From an uncultured Candidatus Saccharibacteria bacterium (GTDB taxonomy: Bacteria > Patescibacteriota > Minisyncoccia > Phycocordibacterales > WO2-35-19), in NCBI GenBank assembly GCA_964548205.1, contig CAZJPJ010000004.1, positions 21,577 to 85,576 on the forward strand: 64,000 nucleotides of DNA. The letters are read 5' to 3'. Below, one piece after another: positions 19,415 through 56,994 of the stretch. Every line of letters starts with the position of its first letter. The first letter of the stretch is position 1. The notes beneath the pieces are model-generated. The model made no database searches. It was not told the DNA's origin and worked only from the letters and a program-made list of their open reading frames with translations. The position numbers were made by a program, and so were the translations under genes.

Positions 19415-20581
19415 TTAGCACAAACCACTGAGAATTTTTTTGAAATTTATGAGTATAGCTATCGATTCTTCTGGTGTTTTAGAATCCATAAGCATAGAAA
19501 GGTGTTTGTTTTTCTCTTCATAAACTCTTGTATCGCCAATAGACGAGACGGCATTGTTGAGATAAGACTTGAAATGCTTTTTCATCACAGCAAAGGACTT
19601 AAATAGAGAAAGATTTTTATCGAACATTTTGATATGCTCTATTAGAGCATCGATCCTCTCTAGTGCAGAAGCATTTGTGGTGACAAAGAGAAAAGGGTCG
19701 CCAAATATGGCTCTACCTAGCATCACCCCGTCGCAACCTGTCTCATCGGCCAGTTGGTAGGCATGAGGCACGTCTCTCACATCACCATTGCCGAAGATGA
19801 GAGTATGATCTCCCCCACCCGCTTCGCTACGCTCAGCACCCTCCCCTTGATCAGGGGAAGGCCTTGGGACAGAAATGCTCTTCGAAGAGACTTGCGACCT
19901 GCCCGCCTTGCTACGCAAGGCATTGCAGGCGGTGCGCGAAAAATACTCATCCCTTATCTCCACTGCTCTCTTTATCCTCTCCCACCTAGCAGGCACCTTG
20001 GACATTTCTTTGCGTGTGCGAGCATGCAAAGTGATAACTGCTGGTTGTGCTTCTAGTAAAGTCGGGAGCCAGCTTTCGAGCTCATCTTTGTTGTATCCAA
20101 GACGGGTCTTTACTGATACAGGTATCTCACTCTTGCCGTATTTTTTTGCACCATCTCTCACTCCCTTTTTTGCCGCTTCGATCAGCTCACGAGCAAGAGA
20201 AGGGTTCTTGATAAGTGCCGCTCCAGCTCCCTGCTTTTCTACACTTTTGTCCGGACAGCCCATATTGATATCTACTCCATCGAACCCGAGCTCTACTGCA
20301 AGCCTTGCCGTCTTCTCCATATGCTCCGGCTTGCTTGTGAAAAATTGAGCCACTATCGGCCTCTCGATCTCGTTATATTCCAGACCTTTCATCAGTCTTT
20401 TCTTTCCTTCCTCTGGAGCAAGAGCCAATCCATCGGCACTGACAAATTCAGTCCATGTCACATGAGGAATGTCTGAATTTTTTGATATGACATATCTAAA
20501 TGCACTGTCAGTAACATCAGCCATAGGAGCCAAACACAAAATCGGCTTTTTTAGATCCGCCCAGAACCCCAGATTTACCAT
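19415..20581 (-). CDS. tRNA-dihydrouridine synthase (Dus family) with a roughly 40-aa GC-rich in-frame insertion
   Basis: LAPMADVTDSAFR ... GFDGVDINMGCP ... GCDGVMLGRAIFGDPFLF. The insertion SRTACNALRSKAGRSQVSSKSISVPRPSPDQGEGAERSEAGGG is encoded by a GC-rich segment that carries the palindromic repeat. Confidence 0.85.
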   Translation of the reverse strand: MVNLGFWADLKKPILCLAPMADVTDSAFRYVISKNSDIPHVTWTEFVSADGLALAPEEGKKRLMKGLEYNEIERPIVAQFFTSKPEHMEKTARLAVELGFDGVDINMGCPDKSVEKQGAGAALIKNPSLARELIEAAKKGVRDGAKKYGKSEIPVSVKTRLGYNKDELESWLPTLLEAQPAVITLHARTRKEMSKVPARWERIKRAVEIRDEYFSRTACNALRSKAGRSQVSSKSISVPRPSPDQGEGAERSEAGGGDHTLIFGNGDVRDVPHAYQLADETGCDGVMLGRAIFGDPFLFVTTNASALERIDALIEHIKMFDKNLSLFKSFAVMKKHFKSYLNNAVSSIGDTRVYEEKNKHLSMLMDSKTPEESIAILINFKKILSGLC

Positions 20582-20935
20582 TGAGAAAATATAGCATAAA
20601 AAACAGCGCTGGAGATGACAAAATCAGGAAGAAAAGTCACCTCCACTAAGCGCTGCGCGGCTCACACTATGCCCGCAACCGAAGTTAGGATGCGAGCCAC
20701 TGTATGGAAAATAGTAAATCATAAACACGCCAAAATAGCAACAAATAACGCGGGCGGCCTCTCCCAACGAGAAGGCCGCCCATTTTGATGTTAGAGAGCG
20801 ACCCGCCTACTTTGGCGAGTGTGCGGGTCTTCTCCCTAGAGTGACTATATTATACAAAATTTCTTATAAAAACAAAATCCCCATCTGCACAATCGCAGTG
20901 GGGACAACAGAAGAAAGAACAAAAGATCGGGCTTA

Positions 20936-20969
20936 CCCGCACACCCAGAAGACGATCTGGGTGTGCGGG
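20936..20969 (-). terminator. strong intrinsic terminator (14 bp perfect stem) downstream of a minus-strand sORF
   Basis: cccgcacacccaga-agacga-tctgggtgtgcggg, followed on the minus strand by a T-rich run. Confidence 0.55.
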
Positions 20970-21028
20970 CTGCCCTTCGCGGAGAGCGGCCGGCTAGCTG
21001 GTAGCTAGCCTGCCGCGCCGGCGCCCGG

Positions 21029-21211
21029 TCAGCCGGGGCACCGGTCCGGAGCGCCGATGCGCACGCGGCGGGCGGCGGCCTGGTACGGGCCGAAAAGAAT
21101 GGGGTGGATCCGAGTGGTCGCGGCGCCCGCGGTCTTGCGGGTGCGGCCGGCGAAAGAAAAAACTGTTATCGATGTACCCATGGTTTTTGCCATGGGCGGC
21201 GAATTGGGCAT
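21029..21211 (-). CDS. candidate small GC-rich ORF (60 aa) with a strong Shine-Dalgarno site; function unknown, may not be coding
   Basis: AAAGGAGGG, then 6 nt, then ATG. Product MPNSPPMAKTMGTSITVFSFAGRTRKTAGAATTRIHPILFGPYQAAARRVRIGAPDRCPG. Ends before the 20936 hairpin. Confidence 0.25.
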   Translation of the reverse strand: MPNSPPMAKTMGTSITVFSFAGRTRKTAGAATTRIHPILFGPYQAAARRVRIGAPDRCPG

Positions 21212-21360
21212 CTTCTGCCCTCCTTTCTTTTTGCGCCAGTACCTAAAACTGGCAATCATTTTTCAACTACCAACGAACGAAATTACCGTTATATCATAGC
21301 ACAACCATAGAAAGTGTCAAGGGTTTTACATGCTTTCCTGCATTTTGTCTAGCCCTTGTA

Positions 21361-21392
21361 CCAAAAAACGGCTTTACGAAGCCGTTTTTTGG
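21361..21392. terminator. bidirectional terminator-like hairpin (A-run, 12 bp stem, T-run)
   Basis: ccaaaaaacggc-tttacgaa-gccgttttttgg. Confidence 0.45.
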
Positions 21393-21539
21393 TAGTGCAA
21401 AAATATTTTGTAAAATTTTATATCAAAACAGAGGCAGTTTTGGTATGTATTTAGGCACAGTTTTTTATATAAAAAAGAAATCCGGGCGCCCTGGGTAGAG
21501 GGGCCCGGAATCGGGTTGTTCGGCGGTGCCTGGAGACTC

Positions 21540-21641
21540 CTAGGCGCCGTCGAAAGTGTTCGAGTCCACCGCGGCCTTCATGCCGACGATCTTCATGCCG
21601 GGAATCATCACTTCGTTGACTTCGCAATGATCGGTTCGCAT
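21540..21641 (-). CDS. candidate small ORF (33 aa) followed by a terminator hairpin; function unknown
   Basis: AGGAGA, then 12 nt, then ATG. Product MRTDHCEVNEVMIPGMKIVGMKAAVDSNTFDGA. The hairpin at 21481..21509 plus a T-run sits immediately downstream. Confidence 0.2.
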   Translation of the reverse strand: MRTDHCEVNEVMIPGMKIVGMKAAVDSNTFDGA

Positions 21642-22024
21642 GATTTGTTGGTTTCTCCTGTTGTTGAGGTGACACCCAGCCCCCGAGGGCTGGGTGAGAA
21701 CGGTGGTGCTGTTCTTTTTTTAGAATAGCAAATATAAAAAATCCTGCAAGTATTAAAACAAAAAGTGTGGATAAGTAAGAAAATAAAAAAGTATAAAAAG
21801 TTTTAGGCCCGTGCGCTCCCTCTTAGTGGATTACGCACGGGCCTCTGTTTGGACGCGCCAGGGTAAAGATCTTGCGCAGGTGGCGAACCATCTCTGGTTC
21901 TTTCTGGGGAAGGTGCTTCGAGGGCTTACTTCCTAAATTTATACCACCTGCTTTTATTTAATAAAATAATAAAAATAATATAGAAAAAGAAAATTTTGTC
22001 AACTACAAAAGTGTATAAAATTTA

Positions 22025-22064
22025 CCCCTCCCCTGATCAAGGGGAGGGGGTTGGGGGTGGGGTT
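22025..22064. repeat. GC-rich palindromic repeat element, copy A (CCCCTCCCCTGATCAAGGGGAGGGG plus a G-tract), lying just 3' of the ClpC-like gene and probably acting as its terminator
   Basis: Perfect 9 bp arms around TGATCAA. A near-identical copy lies at 29741..29784. Confidence 0.7.
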
Positions 22065-22065
22065 C

Positions 22066-24486
22066 CTAAAGTTCTTCGACCTTCACCTCAATTTTCCCTC
22101 CACTTTTCACTTCCCCACTGATTATCTTCTTTGCCACAGCGTCCTCGACGATAGTTTTGACGGCTCTATTTATAGAGCGAGCTCCAAACTTCGGATCGGC
22201 CCCCTTTTCTACAAGATAGCGAACAAGTTCATCTGTTATGACTAATTCTATCTCTTTACTTACGAGTTGCTCTTTCAGTTTTTCTAGCTCGAGCCTAGCG
22301 ATAGTAGCGAGGTTCTCGTTACCAAGTGGCTCGAACACAACCAGTCCATCGAAGCGGTTTAGAAGCTCTGGTTTAAATATTTTTTGTTCCACAATTTTAT
22401 TTATTATTTCATCTTTTTCTTCTGCCAAATTTTTACCCTCACTCTCCGCTTTCCATATAAGGTCACTGCCTGCGTTTGAAGTAGCTATGATGATGAGGTT
22501 ACGACAATTTACCTTATTACCAGAAGCATCGCTAAAAAATCCTTCATCCAGTATTTGTAAGAATAGATCATGGACTTCCCTAGAAGCCTTTTCAAATTCA
22601 TCAAGGAGCAATACTCCATACGGGTTATCTTTGACTTTGCTCGAGAGTATCCCAGGTTTACCATCAGAAAAGTTCCCTATAAGACGAGAGAGTGCATCAA
22701 AACCACTATATTCGGACATGTCTATTCTTACCATCTTGTCTTCGCTCCCAAAATACACTAGAGCCAAAGTCTTTGCAGTCTCTGTCTTACCTACACCGGT
22801 TGGGCCAAAGAAAAGGAAGGAGCCTATCGGTCTATTTGGATTGCCGAGTCCTGACCTTGCTCTCCGTACCGCGCTCGACACTGTATCTACGGCAAATTTC
22901 TGACCGACTACCCTCTCCCCAAGCAAAGATTCTAGTCTATTTATCTTCTCCATCTCTTCTTCTCCGACTTTACCGATCTTTATACCAGTCTTTTCTGACA
23001 CATAAGCCACCACATCTTCTTCTTTCAAAATCTGGCCTTTCACAAGCTTTGTACTCAATACCTCATCGAGAAGATCTAGAGCTTTTTCTGGCATCTCACC
23101 GGTAGTGATATGACGCACAGCAGAGAGCACTATCTGCTTTATCGCTCCGAAGCTAACCAATATCTTCTTACCATCCTCTATTGATCTTACTTTTTCTATT
23201 ATTACAGGCAGCGAAGAATCTTCATGCACTTCAACCGGAAGGACTCTTTCAAATTTTTCTGAAAGTTCTGCACTTGTCTCCAAAAAGAAATGGAAATCAG
23301 CCGATGTAGAATGAGCAACAATGTTCAGTGAAGACGAATTGAGATACGGAGAAAGTAGTGACGCTACATTTACACCGCTCTGTTTGGCGCTGACCAAAAA
23401 AGATGGTAAGTCTCTGATATATAGGATTATATTACCTGCATTTGATGCTTGAGTTAGGAGTTTCAATATTTCAGATTCTATGTCAGCTTTATTCTTAAAG
23501 GTTGCTAAAAGCGCAGACCAATCCAACTCTATGATTTCCTTATGTTCGATATTAGGCAACGCAATCCCAAGCCTTATCTTGCGCAAAAGCCTAGCTACAA
23601 TATCTCTAGAGACATCCTCGCTATTGCTTACTATTACTGCATTGGCCTCCTCACTCCTTTCTAAAATACCTTCGAGGATAGAGACTTCGTGTTCTCTGTA
23701 CCCATTTTCAAGATTGATAAGTGACAAATCTATAGTATTTCCAAAACTTCTGCCATATTTACCAAGCTCAAATGAAATACCGTAGCTCCAAGATTTACCG
23801 ATAGAGGGGATACTACCGAGCTTCTCCCTACCCCAAAACCTTTCTTCCCGTCTCTCTCGTTCTATCGATTCCGCTTCCATCAGAGCTGCTCCAAGAAATT
23901 CTTTTTTTCCTACATTGTGAGTATTCAAAAACTGAGCAAAGACTTTATCCAATTCATATACCGCACTAAGATAGCTGACAAGATCTGATTGTTCGTTTTC
24001 TGTATTGACTGAACCAGAAATGATAGGGGTACGCGCTCCGTCGACAAAACCTTGCCATTCATCCTTTTCGACACCACTTCTTTCAAGCACTCTTTTGCCA
24101 GTCTTACTTTCAAATATGCCCCTCGTTATATCTATCTCACTTGTGTGGTAAAGGATCTCAGATAGTGCAAAGTCGATCCGTCTATTTTCTTTGAGGTTGC
24201 GTTCTACCACTCTCGAATATATCCCTTCACCTTTCATAGAATGGTAGAAAAATTCTATAGAAGCGAAAATCAGATAGAAAAATACAAACAAGAAAAACAA
24301 TGCGTCAGCAAAACTAAAATCTAGGGGCAATACATCTATAGATGCAAACGACAATATGAAGGAGAAAAGTGCCAAAGTAGCCGAGAGCTTCCTAAAAACA
24401 GCCCGCAAAAAACGTGGCAAAAACCTGTCTATAGTTAGGACCAAGGCATGAGGTCTGCTTATTTCCTTTATTTTACTGAAAGTCAT
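22066..24486 (-). CDS. Clp/Hsp100-family AAA+ ATPase, ClpC-like, with an N-terminal transmembrane region and a degenerate first AAA domain
   Basis: D2 is intact: FFGPTGVGKTETAKTLA (Walker A), VLLLDEFEKA (Walker B), IIIATSN, LLNRFD. In D1, Walker A and B are replaced (SNSEDVSR and ILYIRD). The N-terminal 90 aa are hydrophobic. Confidence 0.75.
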   Translation of the reverse strand: MTFSKIKEISRPHALVLTIDRFLPRFLRAVFRKLSATLALFSFILSFASIDVLPLDFSFADALFFLFVFFYLIFASIEFFYHSMKGEGIYSRVVERNLKENRRIDFALSEILYHTSEIDITRGIFESKTGKRVLERSGVEKDEWQGFVDGARTPIISGSVNTENEQSDLVSYLSAVYELDKVFAQFLNTHNVGKKEFLGAALMEAESIERERREERFWGREKLGSIPSIGKSWSYGISFELGKYGRSFGNTIDLSLINLENGYREHEVSILEGILERSEEANAVIVSNSEDVSRDIVARLLRKIRLGIALPNIEHKEIIELDWSALLATFKNKADIESEILKLLTQASNAGNIILYIRDLPSFLVSAKQSGVNVASLLSPYLNSSSLNIVAHSTSADFHFFLETSAELSEKFERVLPVEVHEDSSLPVIIEKVRSIEDGKKILVSFGAIKQIVLSAVRHITTGEMPEKALDLLDEVLSTKLVKGQILKEEDVVAYVSEKTGIKIGKVGEEEMEKINRLESLLGERVVGQKFAVDTVSSAVRRARSGLGNPNRPIGSFLFFGPTGVGKTETAKTLALVYFGSEDKMVRIDMSEYSGFDALSRLIGNFSDGKPGILSSKVKDNPYGVLLLDEFEKASREVHDLFLQILDEGFFSDASGNKVNCRNLIIIATSNAGSDLIWKAESEGKNLAEEKDEIINKIVEQKIFKPELLNRFDGLVVFEPLGNENLATIARLELEKLKEQLVSKEIELVITDELVRYLVEKGADPKFGARSINRAVKTIVEDAVAKKIISGEVKSGGKIEVKVEEL

Positions 24487-27093: not shown

Positions 27094-28050
27094 ATGACAT
27101 ACACAATCCAAAAAATGTTGCCCACGGATTGGCCCCCTCTGCTTCAAGCAATCAACGACCCGCCTAAAAAACTTTTTTATGCAGGCAGAATACCTGATTA
27201 TGAGAGAAAATTTTTGTGCGTTGTGGGTAGTAGAAAATATACAAACTACGGTAAAGAAGCTGTCACTTCGATCATCTCCGACTTGCAGGGGTATCCAGTG
27301 ACAATAGTTTCTGGTCTTGCTTATGGTATCGACGCTCTAGCACACCGTAGCGCTATGAAGTTTGGCTTGCCCACGATCGCCGTACCGGGGTCGGGACTTT
27401 CAAGAGAAGTCTTACACCCTAGTGCTCATGCCGGCTTAGCAGAAGAGATAGTGGCAAGCGGTGGGACTCTACTTTCAGAATACGATAGCGATTTCAAAGC
27501 TACCCAATGGAGCTTCCCTCTGCGCAATCGGATCATGGCCGGCATGTCTGTCGCCACCCTCATTATAGAAGCAGAAGAAAAGAGCGGCACCATGATTACA
27601 GCCAAATTGACTACCGAATACAACCGCGATTTGCTCGCCATACCCGGCAGCATTTTCTCACCATCTTCAGACGGACCAAATATGTTTATACGTCTTGGGG
27701 CTACTCTAGTAAGAAATGGGGGTGATGTATTAGAAGCTTTGGGGATAGGAAGGATGAAGTTCAAAGTAGAAAGCGAAAAGTCAGAAAATAAAAATGGATC
27801 ACAAATTTCAGAAAGAAAAGAAGTTGGAGAAGAACACTTGGATAAATATTTGAAAGAAAAGTATCAGGACTGCGGAGAAAACGAGCTAGTACTAATAAAA
27901 ATATTGATAAAAGAAAACAAGCCCCGCGACGAACTCGTTCGTCGCGGGGCCGACTCCGGCCTCTCCATCTCCGACATCCAAACTTCTCTCACCCTCCTCG
28001 AACTCAAAGGCCATATCGAAGAAAAACTCGGAGAAGTAAGGCTTATATAG
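27094..28050 (+). CDS. dprA: DNA processing protein DprA (Smf)
   Basis: VVGSRKYTNYGKEA...VSGLAYGIDALAHRSA...FPLRNRIMAGMS...EAEEKSGTMITA. The C-terminal wHTH-like tail contains an in-frame 30-nt perfect palindrome. Confidence 0.85.
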   Translation: MTYTIQKMLPTDWPPLLQAINDPPKKLFYAGRIPDYERKFLCVVGSRKYTNYGKEAVTSIISDLQGYPVTIVSGLAYGIDALAHRSAMKFGLPTIAVPGSGLSREVLHPSAHAGLAEEIVASGGTLLSEYDSDFKATQWSFPLRNRIMAGMSVATLIIEAEEKSGTMITAKLTTEYNRDLLAIPGSIFSPSSDGPNMFIRLGATLVRNGGDVLEALGIGRMKFKVESEKSENKNGSQISERKEVGEEHLDKYLKEKYQDCGENELVLIKILIKENKPRDELVRRGADSGLSISDIQTSLTLLELKGHIEEKLGEVRLI

Positions 28051-28237: not shown

Positions 28238-28272
28238 CCCCGACCGTCACAAGTCGGGGGTTGCTTTTTTAT
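28238..28272 (+). terminator. intrinsic terminator
   Basis: ccccgac-cgtcacaa-gtcgggg followed by ttgctttttta. Confidence 0.55.
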
Positions 28273-28280
28273 ACAGAGTG

Positions 28281-28289
28281 TGATATAAT
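28281..28289 (+). promoter_or_regulatory. extended -10 promoter element (TGaTATAAT)
   Basis: tgatataat lies 26 nt upstream of the ATG at 28315. Confidence 0.4.
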
Positions 28290-28314
28290 CAAAAATGGAA
28301 AGGAAACCTCAATC

Positions 28315-29283: not shown

Positions 29284-29397
29284 ATGAACGATGATCCGTT
29301 TGTGATTGTGTTAGTTCTAGGAGGCTTCCTTTGTCTTATCGTCGCAAGACGACAAATAAAGGAAGTCAGAAAAATTTTTGGAGGAAAGAAAAAATGA
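29284..29397 (+). CDS. 37-aa single-TM small protein, translationally coupled (ATGA) to the downstream Flp-like gene
   Basis: AGGAGG, 6 nt, ATG. Product MNDDPFVIVLVLGGFLCLIVARRQIKEVRKIFGGKKK. Confidence 0.4.
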   Translation: MNDDPFVIVLVLGGFLCLIVARRQIKEVRKIFGGKKK

Positions 29398-29633
29398 GGA
29401 GAAAAAATGCTGCCCGGAGGGGTAGCAACTTGTTGGAGTACGCGGTGGTGGTGGGATTCGGAATTGTGGCCATCTATATGGCCTTCCGCGAGCCGATCAA
29501 GCTCGCAGTCCTAAACCTCATCAATGCGCGCGTAACTGCGTGCATTGCAAGCAACCCCACAGACAATACATGGCGGGAGCAATGCCACAAAGATGGCATG
29601 AATTGGAGGAGGATAATCGTAGACAGGTTGTAA
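29394..29633 (+). CDS. Flp/Fap-family pilin-like protein (type IVb / Tad pilin-like prepilin)
   Basis: MRRKNAARRG|SNLLEYAVVVGFGIVAIYMAF fits the Flp G-x4-EY processing motif and hydrophobic core; 79 aa. Confidence 0.55.
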   Translation: MRRKNAARRGSNLLEYAVVVGFGIVAIYMAFREPIKLAVLNLINARVTACIASNPTDNTWREQCHKDGMNWRRIIVDRL

Positions 29634-29740: not shown

Positions 29741-29784
29741 CCCCCCTCTCCTGATCAAGGGGAGGGGTTGGGGGGTGGGGTTTT
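29741..29784. repeat. GC-rich palindromic repeat element, copy B
   Basis: ccccctctcctgatcaaggggaggggttggggggtggggtttt; near-identical to copy A at 22025. Confidence 0.7.
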
Positions 29785-29821
29785 GCATTTTCTGCCCTTA
29801 TTCTTTATCCTGTAATAAATA
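29780..29821 (+). repeat. left copy of a roughly 42 bp direct repeat flanking the mazF-like cassette
   Basis: gttttgcattttctgcccttattctttatcctgtaataaata matches 30354..30396 at 38 of 42 positions. Confidence 0.6.
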
Positions 29822-29846: not shown

Positions 29847-30233
29847 ATGAAAAAAGATTTTAAAGATTGGCACAAAGAAAAAAGTTGCTTGCAGGAAGAT
29901 AAGGTTCGTCCATTTTTTCATGAGAGAGAAGTTTGGTTTGCCTCTGTTGGTTTAAATATTGGTTTTGAACAAGACGGTAGAGGGGATAGATTCTTGAGAC
30001 CAGTTATTATTTTAAAGAAATTTAACAATGAAGTACTCTGGTGTATACCACTTACAAAAAATCAGAAGAAAGGGAAATATTATCTTCAATTTAGACTTGG
30101 AGATGAAACCAGCACAGCCATACTCTCTCAGATTCGCCTGATAGATTCAAAAAGATTGCAGTACAAAATCGGAAACCTTGAAGTAGATGACTTTAGTGAA
30201 CTAAAAAAGAAAATCACCCAAATTCTTGGATGA
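29847..30233 (+). CDS. PemK/MazF-family endoribonuclease toxin-like protein, solitary (no adjacent antitoxin ORF)
   Basis: EVWFASVGLNIGFEQDGRGDRFLRPVIILKK...LWCIPLTKNQKK...AILSQIRLIDSKRLQYKIGNL matches the MazF/PemK fold pattern. TATAAT lies 14 nt upstream. Confidence 0.55.
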   Translation: MKKDFKDWHKEKSCLQEDKVRPFFHEREVWFASVGLNIGFEQDGRGDRFLRPVIILKKFNNEVLWCIPLTKNQKKGKYYLQFRLGDETSTAILSQIRLIDSKRLQYKIGNLEVDDFSELKKKITQILG

Positions 30234-30353: not shown

Positions 30354-30396
30354 GTTTTGCATTTTATCCCCTTATTCTTTATTCTTTAATAAATAT
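30354..30396 (+). repeat. right copy of the roughly 42 bp direct repeat; abuts the topA start codon
   Basis: gttttgcattttatccccttattctttattctttaataaata. Confidence 0.6.
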
Positions 30397-36332: not shown

Positions 36333-37379
36333 GTGAAAAATAAAGGAGGTAAAACAAATAATATAGGAGAAAAGATAAAAGTGCTAGTGATACTTGGCCC
36401 CACAGCGAGTGGCAAGAGCGACTTGGCTGTATCTTTGGCGCGCAAATATGGCGGCGAAGTGGTAAGTGCAGATTCTAGACAGGTGTACAAAGGGTTAGAC
36501 ATTGGCACGGGGAAAATAACAAAAAGAGAAATGCAAGGTGTGCCCCACCATCTGCTTGATGTAGCTTCGCCAAAGCGACAATTTTCTGCTCACGACTTTG
36601 TAGAGCTTGCACAAAAAGCTATTGAAGACATACACGCGCGAGGTAAATTGCCCATCATCTGCGGTGGTACAGGGTTTTATATTAGTGCCCTACTTGGAGA
36701 GACAAAACTTTCTGACGTGCCGATGAATAAAAACCTCCGCAAAGAGCTGGAGAAAAAATCTGCACGAGAGTTGTTTGAGATTCTTCAAAATCTTGATGCA
36801 AAGAGAAGTAAAACAATCGATAAGTATAATCCGCACAGGCTGATAAGAGCAATAGAAATAGCCAAAGCTTCTGCAAAACATAAGCAAGCATCAAGTCCTA
36901 AAAAACAAGTTCCAAACAAATATGAGGTATGCAAAATAGGAGTTGCACCAATGAAAAAAATATCCCACCCCCCTACCCCCTCCCTTACCTTAAGGAAGGG
37001 GGCGAAGAGAGAGAGTTATATCATTGATCAAACAGAATTAAAAAGAAAAATAAATGAGCGTATAGATCGATGGTTCAAACTTGGACTAATAAATGAGGTG
37101 AAAAATCTTCACAAGAAAAGGATTTCGTGGAAACGAATGTCAGATATAGGCTTAGAATACAGGCTAGTTGCACAATACTTGCAAAAGAAACTAACAAAAG
37201 ATCAACTTACAGAAAGAATGCGGCTTGAAACTTGGCACTACGCCAAACGCCAGATGACGTGGTTCAAGAGACCTGTCCACCACGCTTCGCGAAGCGATGC
37301 ATGCGGAGATAGACAAATACATTGGTTCAAACCTGACCAAGTTACAAAGATCCAAAAGCTAGTTTCAAAATTTATTTAG
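36333..37379 (+). CDS. miaA: tRNA dimethylallyltransferase
   Basis: VLVILGPTASGKSDLAVSLA...VVSADSRQVYKGLDIGTGKIT. Contains an in-frame GC-rich insertion (ISHPPTPSLTLRKGAKRES). Confidence 0.85.
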   Translation: MKNKGGKTNNIGEKIKVLVILGPTASGKSDLAVSLARKYGGEVVSADSRQVYKGLDIGTGKITKREMQGVPHHLLDVASPKRQFSAHDFVELAQKAIEDIHARGKLPIICGGTGFYISALLGETKLSDVPMNKNLRKELEKKSARELFEILQNLDAKRSKTIDKYNPHRLIRAIEIAKASAKHKQASSPKKQVPNKYEVCKIGVAPMKKISHPPTPSLTLRKGAKRESYIIDQTELKRKINERIDRWFKLGLINEVKNLHKKRISWKRMSDIGLEYRLVAQYLQKKLTKDQLTERMRLETWHYAKRQMTWFKRPVHHASRSDACGDRQIHWFKPDQVTKIQKLVSKFI

Positions 37380-45341: not shown

Positions 45342-45462
45342 AGATCACCTCTGCAACAAAACTAACATTTAAGGCCTGAATTTCCAAGTATCCTTATTAC
45401 AATAATATCAATATCCAGACTACTTTTATTTAATGATTTTTATGATAAAATCTGCATTATCG

Positions 45463-45511
45463 CGTCGGTGGTAGAGCTTGCCCCGCCACGGCGGGGTGAA
45501 GTCAATTACAA
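45463..45511 (+). repeat. tRNA-Tyr 5' fragment (positions 1-27) with a 25-nt GC hairpin inserted in the D-loop, immediately upstream of the GIY-YIG gene
   Basis: gcgtcggtggtagag [cttgccccgccacggcggggtgaag] tcaattacaa compared with the intact tRNA's gcgtcggtggtagagtggtcaattacaa. Confidence 0.65.
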
Positions 45512-45840: not shown

Positions 45841-46037
45841 CAGCGCAAAACAAAACAAAAACAGGATAAATGCCTGTTTTTGTTTTCGTGCCTATGCACG
45901 AGGGAGGATTCGAAAGCCGGAGGGCACGGAGCGAAGCGAAGTCCGAACTTAGCAAAGTTCGGGCCCGAGGTGGGGTCGCGGAAAATTATTTTTGACGAAA
46001 AATAATTTATCTGTGACCGAATCCTGCCCGGCGCACA
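45823..46037 (+). mobile_element. att-like structure: a 20-nt direct repeat of the tRNA-Tyr 3' end (cgaatcctgcccggcgcaca) bounding a roughly 175 bp hairpin-rich segment; remnant of an element integrated at the tRNA 3' end
   Basis: Identical 20-mers at 45823..45842 and 46018..46037; internal palindromes (acaaaaacagg...cctgtttttgt and aaaattattttt-gacg-aaaaataatttt). Confidence 0.55.
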
Positions 46038-52980: not shown

Positions 52981-53296
52981 GTCCGCTCAGAGGGAATCGG
53001 TCACGAGTTCCTTCGCCAAGCTCAGGACTCTCGACCCCAGCTCGCCCGTCTCGCTTTGCTCGACATGGCTCCGCTTTTCGATTCCTCACGCAAGCAAAGC
53101 AGTTTGCTTGCTTTCGCGTCCAAACCGCTTCGCAACTTGTCCGCTCAGAGGGAATCGGTCACGAGTTCCTTCGCCAAGCTCAGGACTCTCGACCCCAGCT
53201 CGCCCGTCTCGCTTTGCTCGACATGGCTCCGCTTTTCGATTCCTCACGCAAGCAAAGCAGTTTGCTTGCTTTCGCGTCCAAACCGCTTCGCAACTT
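52981..53296. repeat. two tandem 158 bp repeat units, each beginning (in plus-strand view) with a 19-nt copy of the tRNA-Lys 3' end
   Basis: Units at 52981..53138 and 53139..53296 are essentially identical. Each starts gtccgctcagagggaatcg, the 3' end of tRNA-Lys. Each contains the hairpin gcaagcaaagcagtttgcttgc. Confidence 0.75.
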
Positions 53297-53297
53297 G

Positions 53298-53370
53298 TCC
53301 GCTCAGAGGGAATCGAACCCCCGACCATCTCCTTAAGAGGGAGCTGCTCTACCAGCTGAGCTATGAGCGG
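53298..53370 (-). tRNA. tRNA-Lys (anticodon CTT); the acceptor stem begins C1:G72
   Basis: CCGCTCATAGCTCAGCTGGTAGAGCAGCTCCCTCTTAAGGAGATGGTCGGGGGTTCGATTCCCTCTGAGCGGA. Confidence 0.75.
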
Positions 53371-55041: not shown

Positions 55042-55177
55042 AATTTACAATTATCTCACGTGGCTGTTGCACGAAATATGGCCTGAAATATAGGTTATCA
55101 CACATTTCCCCAAAATTCAACATTTTGCTTGCATTTTCTATCATAATATGCTATAATAAAAGTAGGAGGTGGTCATA

Positions 55178-56852: not shown

Positions 56853-56994
56853 ACCCAAGCCCTGTTTAGGGCAAACCAACCCCCAAATGCATCGCTTTCA
56901 AGGCATAGCGTGAGGGGGTTGCTTTTTTATACGAAATGTGCTATAATATAAATAGGTCTGTGTACAATAACAATTGCATAAGGAGACGAAGGAA

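Follow-up and report, generated by a model that had tools for sequence, protein, structure and literature searches.

A BoxC/PIT-like palindromic repeat found between genes and in frame within dus and miaA of an uncultured Candidatus Saccharibacteria bacterium

A 64,000-nucleotide stretch of the genome of an uncultured Candidatus Saccharibacteria bacterium (assembly GCA_964548205.1, contig CAZJPJ010000004.1, positions 21,577 to 85,576; hereafter, the window) carries a GC-rich hairpin repeat at four sites, two of them between genes and two in frame within dus and miaA. The sequences show that these sites belong to one family by architecture, that the repeat is dispersed, that its in-gene copies are lineage-specific in-frame insertions, and that they lie in protein loops. 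We consider it probable that all four are copies of a single dispersed, non-coding repeat of the BoxC/PIT type, which has spread non-autonomously and, within genes, has survived in frame in tolerant loops.

The initial annotation of the window had proposed a dispersed family of GC-rich palindromes with both intergenic and in-frame copies, and this proposal holds for two intergenic and two in-gene copies. All sequences quoted in that annotation were found, at coordinates that are exact or off by 1 to 2 nt, and the peptides PSPDQGEG, PRDELVRRG, and ISHPPTPSLTLRKG are encoded where it placed them. Its gene names agree with the Pfam matches, namely Dus, DprA (DNA_processg_A and DprA_WH), MiaA (IPPT), and a ClpB/ClpC-type AAA protein. 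The 25-nt core CCCCTCCCCTGATCAAGGGGAGGGG is present at 22025 without mismatch, at 29743 with one mismatch, and, with three mismatches, on the minus strand at 19838-19862, in the sense direction of dus; 100 dinucleotide-preserving shuffles of the window gave no match. A neutral scan of the 64 kb for hairpins whose 5′ arm is all pyrimidine and pairs with a purine arm returned exactly four sites (19839, 22025, 29743, and 36976). Because the scan returned only these, the miaA segment, previously described as related to the repeat, is taken as the fourth family member; as scanned, its hairpin region at 36976-37002 reads CCCCCTTCC ttaaggtaa GGGAGGGGG ta GGGGGGTGGGAT on the minus strand. All four copies have 9-nt arms with 0 or 1 mismatch, and the two intergenic copies, which share GTTGGGGG(G)TGGGGTT, are 93% identical. 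The GC content of the window, measured per 2 kb, is 35 to 53% and mostly 36 to 45%.

In the repeat unit, a C-rich arm, a loop, and the complementary G-rich arm are followed by a second loop and then by a further G-tract in mirror image to the G-arm (CCCCTCCCC-N7-GGGGAGGGG-TT-GGGGTGGGG). A GGGTGGGGT-type G-tract (any of five close variants used in the scan) follows the core after 2 to 7 or 12 to 16 nt in 72 of 88 unique contexts, and the longer spacer forms a mini-hairpin (for example, GGCCGTAGGCC, CGACGCGAAGCGCG, or GCGAAGC). Positions −5 to −1 of the hairpin have the consensus G-T-T/C-T-T. While arm sequences vary between subfamilies, G-arm and G-tract form mirror pairs, GGGGAGGGG/GGGGTGGGG in one subfamily and GGAGAGGGG/GGGGTGAGG in another. 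The mirror tract of the 22025 copy reads GGGGAGGGG gtt GGGGGTGGGG, and the 29743, miaA, and dus copies are alike. Across all loci, a third strand that obeys the mirror rule lies downstream of 121 of the 257 asymmetric hairpins, compared with 53 that are followed by a direct repeat and 5 that have the mirror-rule strand upstream. Where the G-tract motif was found without the core, a hairpin lies just upstream in 46 of 70 cases, versus 164 of 2,000 random positions. Given that the G-tract mirrors the G-arm, the unit belongs, as far as sequence architecture can tell, to the BoxC/PIT family, also called "TM" for its intrastrand-triplex motif. These repeats have been known since the 1990s, and to our knowledge there is no agreed function or spreading mechanism for them.

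Copies of the repeat are not confined to the window. Scans for the exact 23-nt core found 47 DNA stretches in species-representative genomes, where about 0.07 are expected by chance, and 72 in metagenome contigs. None of these loci has the flanks of the window copies, and the source genome was thus not among the species representatives. Most of the matches come from Patescibacteria (Zambryskibacteria, Paceibacterota, metagenome-assembled genomes [MAGs] labelled Saccharibacteria, and 0.1-μm fractions of Hainich groundwater). Filamentous cyanobacteria (Coleofasciculus, Microcoleus, Lyngbya, and Allocoleopsis), one Chloroflexia MAG, and one Chitinophagaceae MAG account for a minority of the matches; the cyanobacterial copies inspected look intergenic. 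No copy of the core was found in viral contigs, and a protein database search for host families with the element-encoded peptide gave no candidate. In Microcoleus, Lyngbya, and the matching metagenome contigs (L004, L007, L009, L042, L055, L062, L077, and L093), the unit is nested in a larger palindromic element with the ends TATAGCAATCCTTGCAGGAGTCGTAAA...TTTAGGATTGCTATA.

Units also occur as inverted doublets of approximately 130 nt, which we aligned from the Fmt, UvrB, and Dus genes and one intergenic site (L012, L034, L036, and L081) and which recur in L110. Identity among the doublets opens at GACCTCACCCC and closes at GGGGTGGGGT(T), so that the outer ends are GACCTCACCCC...GGGGTGGGGTT, and the flanks are unrelated. 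The termini are inverted repeats that match at 10 of 11 nt, as the reverse-complemented 3′ end, AACCCCACCCC, shows beside GACCTCACCCC. The predicted single-stranded DNA fold of the L036 doublet pairs its two termini (dG −32.4, z = −4.9). Subfamilies are specific to a genome: the spacer TGGCTGAAA(A)GCC is common to four of the copies in the MAG CAYICK01 and at other sites was noticed only in one metagenome contig (L081). Such subfamilies look like the outcome of spread within a genome.

In-frame copies in protein-coding genes

In dus, the repeat lies within a segment that the initial annotation regarded as an insertion. After residue 205 the Pfam match to Dus is interrupted, and the distance from AVEIRDE to KTLIFGNGDV in 30 close orthologues ranges from no extra residues (P0035, P0038, P0086, P0099, and P0107) up to about 90 (P0074), which shows the segment to be a lineage-specific insertion. 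The order of blocks in the dus copy (Table 1) matches that of the 12- to 16-nt-loop variants of other Patescibacteria. The insert looks like a degenerate, doublet-sized element whose right unit is recognizable and whose left half has diverged, the upstream hairpin possibly being the decayed left unit. The RNA of 19800-19950 on the minus strand is predicted to be strongly folded (dG −70.6, z = −4.1). In an AlphaFold2 model of Dus (mean predicted local distance difference test score [pLDDT] of 87.9), residues 226-259 form a coil, with pLDDT below 50 at 240-255, between the helix 200-225 and the strand 260-264 that carries the conserved GNGD motif.

The alignment of Dus orthologues has further insertion hot spots in Patescibacteria, at columns 50-97, 213-231, 252-265, and 317-393, in which the peptide modules QKCTDIFLLENSSCSPQSGSQGIS, EPARINESLGG, and PQPPLNLRGGA recur. 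These modules suggest that Patescibacterial genomes may hold further families of in-frame repeats.

The miaA segment is likewise a lineage-specific insertion. MiaA residues 205-230 are missing in 12 of 30 aligned orthologues, and similar sequence is present in most of the others (about half). The AlphaFold2 model places the insert between the strand 197-204 and the helix 233-249, with pLDDT below 50 at 218-225. The expectation that the inserts lie in loops is thus supported in Dus and MiaA, the only two proteins modelled, by low-pLDDT coil between regular secondary structure. In four miaA orthologues (L120-L123), a unit occupies the same codon position with its hairpin of 11 to 12 bp intact. 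Among the five sequences, the hairpin shows one compensatory pair (T-A to C-G), a level of covariation that 55 of 500 shuffles reached. The nearest relatives of the window's Dus and MiaA are approximately 54 to 66% identical, and the best-named ones are from Zambryskibacteria, Paceibacteria, and other Patescibacteria.

A second lineage-specific insert of miaA (Table 1), with pLDDT below 50 at residues 314-326, holds the palindrome GCTTCGCGAAGC, which resembles the second-loop mini-hairpins GCTTCGCG and GCGAAGC. It may be a decayed further copy of the repeat.

Beyond the window, 22 of 70 unique contexts of Patescibacteria type from the genome and metagenome scans lie within open reading frames (ORFs), defined as a reading frame open for at least 50 codons on either side of the copy. 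Conserved motifs in the translations identify hosts as Met-tRNA formyltransferase (Fmt), MnmA, GatC, FolD, Dus, and the tail of ribosomal protein L19. Pfam matches add RNase R (two sites), TsaD, UvrB, TatD, TruB, a UvrD/PD-(D/E)XK helicase-nuclease, an intein-containing protein, and a lamin-tail-domain protein. One FolD gene (L045) holds two separate in-frame units, and RNase R orthologues (L040 versus L016 and L032) hold near-identical doublets at two different protein positions. The inserts are in frame, since conserved domains carry on at both sides; the earlier claim that in-gene copies preserve the reading frame stands for dus and miaA, and conserved domains flank the copies of the other hosts.

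The in-gene copies are read mainly in one frame. Among the four open frames, the one that encodes PSPDQGEG..GGV is used in 15 of the 22 in-ORF contexts; with orthologous sites collapsed by hand, at our own judgement, the preferred frame is used at 13 of 20 sites (binomial P = 1.8e−4). The other two of the six frames are interrupted by TGA and do not occur among the in-gene copies; this is in part a circular result, as a frame had to be open for a copy to count as in-ORF. We infer that selection, rather than targeting, lies behind the frame bias. At three orthologous sites, units are present in opposite orientations (Fmt, L012 versus L057; Dus, L036 versus L080; helicase-nuclease, L047 versus L002).

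In the limited literature that we searched, neither Patescibacterial copies of these repeats nor BoxC/PIT units inside coding sequence were described, which does not prove novelty; the in-frame behavior of the BoxC/PIT unit in Patescibacteria appears to be new. It would explain part of the protein length variation of the Candidate Phyla Radiation and is relevant to annotators, structure predictors, and alignment-based phylogenies. Sites that are filled, empty, or inverted across orthologues constitute natural experiments on whether such structures are selfish, neutral, or useful.

Table 1. Repeat copies, inserts, and genes of the window, with positions counted from its first nucleotide
Feature	Position	Strand	Sequence or remark
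Intergenic unit	22025-22064	plus	CCCCTCCCC TGATCAA GGGGAGGGG GTT GGGGGTGGGG TT
Intergenic unit	29741-29782	plus	CCCCCCTCTCC TGATCAA GGGGAGGGG TT GGGGGGTGGGG TT
In-frame dus insert	19805-19945	minus	141 nt; residues 213-259 (47 aa), YFSRTACNALRSKAGRSQVSSKSISVPRPSPDQGEGAERSEAGGGDH
Core hairpin of dus copy	19839-19861	minus	CCTTCCCC TGATCAA GGGGAGGG (C-arm, loop, G-arm); read as PSPDQGEG
Second loop of dus copy	19821-19838	minus	TGCTGAGCGTAGCGAAGC, 18 nt
Third G-tract of dus copy	19812-19820	minus	GGGTGGGGG, 3′ of the 18-nt second loop
Upstream hairpin in dus insert	19898-19929	minus	CCTGCAATGCCTTGC GTA GCAAGGCGGGCAGG; strongly diverged, at the left-unit position of a doublet
In-frame miaA insert	36945-37022	plus	residues 205-230, APMKKISHPPTPSLTLRKGAKRESYI
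Repeat unit within miaA	36963-37002	minus	single, antisense to the gene; CCCCCTTCC ttaaggtaa GGGAGGGGG ta GGGGGGTGGGA
Second lineage-specific miaA insert	37266-37305		PVHHASRSDACGD
Perfect inverted repeat in dprA	27921-27950		14+2+14, GC-rich
dus	19415-20581	minus	Pfam Dus
ClpB/ClpC-type ATPase gene	22066-24486	minus	Pfam
dprA	27094-28050		Pfam DNA_processg_A and DprA_WH
miaA	36333-37379		Pfam IPPT

Mobility of the repeat and alternative explanations

We propose that the repeat would multiply within genomes as a non-autonomous element, given the genome-specific subfamilies and the occurrence of the same sharp-ended inverted doublet of approximately 130 nt in unrelated genes. In the gene-dense Patescibacterial lineage of the window, copies would insert not only into spacers but also into coding DNA. 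A copy in a gene would survive only if it kept the host frame, offered a stop-free frame (one of four), and fell in a tolerant loop. The surviving frame would mostly add the Pro/Gly/Ser-rich peptide PSPDQGEG..GGV. In dus, the tolerant site would be the loop that leads from helix to strand before the GNGD strand, and in miaA it would be the loop that leads from strand to helix before the RINxRI helix. Intergenic copies could be co-opted, as the 22025 copy may have been as a terminator of the ClpC-like gene.

Several observations weigh against this proposal. No linked transposase was found in 890 kb of loci with an IS200/IS605 profile (other insertion sequence [IS] families were not screened), and no consistent direct repeat that could be a target-site duplication surrounds the four aligned doublets. 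Since neither was found, the case for mobility is the distribution of the units, from which the repeat appears to be mobile. No within-species pair of an empty and a filled site is at hand, the closest non-self Dus proteins having 59 to 64% BLASTP identity (up to 66% in the alignment), and translation of the inserts is presumed. The miaA insert seems to be conserved beyond what is expected of a neutral relic: its DNA is 76 to 100% identical between orthologues, versus 61 to 75% for the remaining gene (100% versus 70% for the pair L120/L122). Such conservation suggests constraint at the nucleotide level, gene conversion between copies, or re-insertion. This conservation and the units found at one site in either orientation are accommodated by maintenance, targeting, or gene conversion no worse than by the selective survival of chance insertions. 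Finally, the literal TMECO pattern published for the BoxC/PIT family (Holder et al. 2015, PMC4666352) is not matched, the arms here being CCCCTCCCC or CCCCTCTCC and not CCCTCNCCC.

The search for a mobilizing enzyme covered 4,483 ORF segments of the 890 kb, in which the IS200/IS605 TnpA profile gave nothing significant except one RAYT-like ORF. This ORF, at L033:1083-1748, is a candidate Y1 (HUH) transposase that scores 38.6 bits against Pfam Y1_Tnp and 42 bits, under the cut-off of 80, against NCBIfam REP_Tyr_transpos. Its homologues are at L002:5038-5707 and L107:1196-1844 (L107/L098/L108). The RAYT-like genes lie 1.8 to 4 kb from a unit, and their own flanks hold other palindromes (for example, ACTAAACGCTCAGCGT...ACGCTGAGCGTTTAGT), not units. 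There is no RAYT-like gene in the window, and a tblastn search of plasmids with the ORF gave no Sphingomonas match that would tie it to the units found there. Three independent co-occurrences of a RAYT-like gene and a unit per approximately 88 contexts are slightly above a rough expectation for a single-copy gene, an excess that is not convincing. Spread by a single-strand hairpin mechanism with a RAYT-like Y1 transposase is our leading guess at a mechanism, and a tentative one that we hold to be doubtful.

The alternative that survives best, which we nevertheless regard as unlikely, is that the unit is a nucleic-acid structure (hairpin, triplex, or G-quadruplex-capable) maintained by the host and selected at particular sites rather than selfish DNA. 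For example, it could pause replication, transcription, or, at a domain boundary, translation, serve as a hot spot of recombination, or form the end of an mRNA. Recombination or gene conversion would then have spread or homogenized the copies, and the in-frame peptides would be a by-product. The conservation of the miaA insert DNA described above favors this explanation, as do the intact hairpin in all five miaA genes with its compensatory pair, the occupation of orthologous Fmt, Dus, and helicase-nuclease sites in either orientation, and the presence of near-identical units in at least five bacterial phyla. The lack of a linked mobility gene, both in our loci and beside the E. coli copies as reported in PMC4666352, also agrees with it. 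However, many orthologues do without the insert, and the dus copy of the window is decaying, with three mismatches in its core and a degenerate left half. The covariation is thin, being a single pair in five sequences that shuffles often equalled, and genome-specific subfamilies and identical doublets in unrelated genes and flanks look like amplification. PIT elements also had no promoter or terminator activity in E. coli (Hoyne and Maher 2000/2002, as cited in PMC4666352).

A further conjecture, to which we give little credence, is that the Patescibacterial repeats, far from being decaying debris, are under active maintenance and that RAYT-like Y1 transposases, such as those near three copies, might repeatedly seed them anew into one set of permissive loops in essential enzymes. 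If it were true, it would provide the first mobilizing enzyme for a 30-year-old repeat family and reveal a bacterial system by which ultra-small genomes continually remodel the surface loops of their core proteins. Near-identical units are present in filamentous cyanobacteria, Chloroflexota, and Bacteroidota, so that the repeats might also serve as tracers of DNA exchange between epibionts and their hosts.

GC-rich "byp" elements are bypassed in some yeast mitochondria, and the inserts, as strongly structured GC-rich islands in genes of approximately 40% GC, could similarly be untranslated intervening sequences that are removed from the mRNA or bypassed by the ribosome. We hold this to be very improbable, because the host frame is preserved at every in-gene copy and conserved domains lie to both sides of it, the TGA-containing frames are not used by in-gene copies (an argument with the circularity noted above), and one hydrophilic frame dominates the 20 independent sites of the hand tally. 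Moreover, no ribozyme or intron was matched in the region: Rfam searches of the whole window (gathering threshold) and of 20500-22100 (E-value mode) returned only tRNAs and sub-threshold noise.

Independent local origin by slippage or low-complexity expansion with convergent likeness, or an assembly artefact at repeats, might be suspected from the simple sequence of the arms (C4TC4, G4AG4, or G4TG4) and from the fact that all Patescibacterial records are metagenome assemblies, yet it is strongly disfavored and hardly credible, given that identities of 23 to 40 nt include the non-simple loop TGATCAA, that doublets of approximately 130 nt with conserved spacers stand in unrelated genes, that the 47 genomic matches far exceed chance, that independent assemblies of different studies have the same junctions (L012 = L089, L030 = L074, and L010 = L104 = L117), and that the same unit is present in finished E. 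coli K-12 genomes.

The dprA palindrome and the surroundings of the intergenic copies

The perfect 30-nt palindrome described in dprA is real, and by our own estimate about 0.001 such palindromes are expected by chance in 64 kb. Its assignment to the family as an insertion was not upheld. In 23 homologues, the C-terminal winged-helix domain has the conserved motif EPxSRDELxR, with which the encoded PRDELVRR aligns; the Pfam DprA_WH match lies at residues 279-310. We rejected it as a family copy, as it has no sequence in common with the other four sites, and no further copy of it was found among the 123 loci examined. Read from the minus strand, the palindrome resembles a terminator, its 14-bp stem leading into the T-rich tail TGTTTTCTTT. 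The proposed picture of a small palindromic mobile sequence tolerated in surface loops is thus retained for dus and miaA and dropped for dprA.

The intergenic copies had both been read as terminators, which fits one of them. The 22025 unit begins 1 nt past the TAG stop codon (22066-22068) of the minus-strand ClpC-like gene and, read on that strand, presents a 10-bp stem followed by TAAATTTTAT, so that it looks like the terminator of this gene. The 29743 copy is not terminator-like. It lies between an Flp-like ORF (29331-29633, with the Flp-pilin-like motif GSNLLEYAVVV) and a PemK-like gene at 29847, and it directly adjoins a promoter-like sequence (GTTTTGCATTTT...) that recurs at 30354.

Several other features of the window were noted. 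Promoter-like blocks recur at 28256-28294 and 56914-56952, at 29780-29821 and 30354-30395, and at 55128-55170, with the sequences GGGGGTTGCTTTTTTATAC...TGTGATATAAT and GTTTTGCATTTT...TAATAAATA; some of them adjoin a hairpin or repeat unit, starting right at its G-rich end. The 1.4-kb stretch 20582-22025, which separates dus from the 22025 unit, is GC-rich (up to approximately 70%, in a genome of 40% GC) and has no ORF longer than 80 aa. A strong promoter-like TTGACA-16-TATTAT (11 of 12 matches) on the minus strand at 22002-21975 is directed into it, and the fold of 20900-21190 on the minus strand has z = −5.7. The stretch had no Rfam match and nothing similar to it in the DNA of the fetched loci; it may be a long structured RNA or a dus leader.

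Two GC-rich hairpin segments, at 45460-45505 and 45915-45982, lie on either side of tRNA-Tyr. One of them, just upstream of a GIY-YIG-like ORF, reads ACTTCACCCC + GCCCCGCC GTG GCGGGGC on the minus strand, and the other terminates in GAGGTGGGGT. A distant relationship of both segments to the repeat is possible. At 52981-53315, a 158-nt segment occurs twice in exact tandem, followed by the first 19 nt of a third copy, and adjoins tRNA-Lys (53297-53370) in a cluster of four tRNAs.

Relationship to known repeat systems

Holder et al. (2015, PMC4666352) define TMECO as CCCTCNCCC N3-6 GGGNGAGGG N3 GGGNGAGGG and report 3,610 copies across 262 proteobacterial genomes and high numbers in cyanobacteria. 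E. coli MG1655 has 23 copies, all intergenic and with five inverted doublets among them. Raised local rearrangement is also reported. The motif forms a stable triplex in vitro and left no in-vivo footprint. The hosts named in what was searched of that paper are Proteobacteria, cyanobacteria, and Thermus, no search of it having been aimed at Patescibacteria.

Our units share with these repeats the order of a C-rich 9-mer, a loop, a complementary G-rich 9-mer, a short loop (TTA, TAA, or TT), and a mirrored G-rich 9-mer. The blocks are CCCTCTCCC/GGGAGAGGG/GGGTGAGGG in E. coli and CCCCTCTCC/GGAGAGGGG/GGGGTGAGG or CCCCTCCCC/GGGGAGGGG/GGGGTGGGG in Patescibacteria. Inverted doublets, tens of near-identical copies per genome, and the lack of a known linked transposase are further likenesses. 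The unit was matched in 1,087 E. coli genomes, and a blastn search of plasmids found many copies in Sphingomonas parapaucimobilis, a doublet included, and others in Moraxella. The trmL-lldD spacer of E. coli K-12 reads CCCCTCACCCC GG CCCTCTCCCC GGAG GGGCGAGGG ... on its left and ... CCCCTCTCCC TGAA GGAGAGGG TTA GGGTGAGGGGG on its right, a tail-out doublet whose outer ends (CCCCTCACCCC...GGGTGAGGGGG) are as in Patescibacteria. The differences lie in detail and in location. Loop 1 of the window copies is 7 to 9 nt long, versus 3 to 6 nt in TMECO, and the arms are C4TC4 or C4TCTC2; the second loop has 12 to 18 nt in the dus copy and many relatives, where loops of 12 to 16 nt form a mini-hairpin. 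Whereas 23 of 23 copies in MG1655 are intergenic, two of the four window copies and 22 of the 70 contexts are in genes. Judged from these sequences, the window copies are variants of the family and not TMECO proper.

The REPIN/RAYT system (Bertels and Rainey 2011, PMC3116915) resembles the repeat in having singlets, inverted doublets that fold into one hairpin, and genome-specific subfamilies, and RAYT-like Y1 genes are present in three element-bearing Patescibacterial loci. REPINs, however, are extragenic by definition, in contrast to the in-ORF copies described here, and the GTAG/CGTC end tag of REP sequences (PMC3733652) is absent from the doublets, which end in GACCTCACCCC and GGGGTGGGGTT. 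The labels Correia-like and classical REP, which the initial annotation had offered, were both rejected: there is no TA duplication and no GTAG tag, and the architecture is different.

[quoted passage not shown] Repeats of Methanomicrobiaceae (Chashchina et al. 2021, PMC8044849), whose hairpin, triplex, and G-quadruplex forms interconvert in vitro, are built of the same three blocks (G4-6 T G4-5, G4 A G5, and C5 T C4). They differ in their mirror order, with the G-tract first and the C-arm last, in their archaeal host, and in being all intergenic.

In behavior, the repeat resembles the Rickettsia palindromic elements (RPEs; Ogata et al. 2000, as summarized in PMC10969869). Both are palindromic repeats that lie in frame in unrelated housekeeping genes without a known transposase, and both add a peptide in one preferred frame at a fold-compatible position. 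RPEs are approximately 100 to 150 bp long, versus a unit of approximately 40 nt here, so that only doublets reach RPE size. The host phylum and the architecture, here a triplex motif, are also different, and E. coli and cyanobacteria have the same unit in intergenic positions. The likeness is one of behavior, and we do not class the repeat as an RPE. We suggest that it would represent a second, independent instance of the RPE phenomenon in another lineage with reduced genomes.

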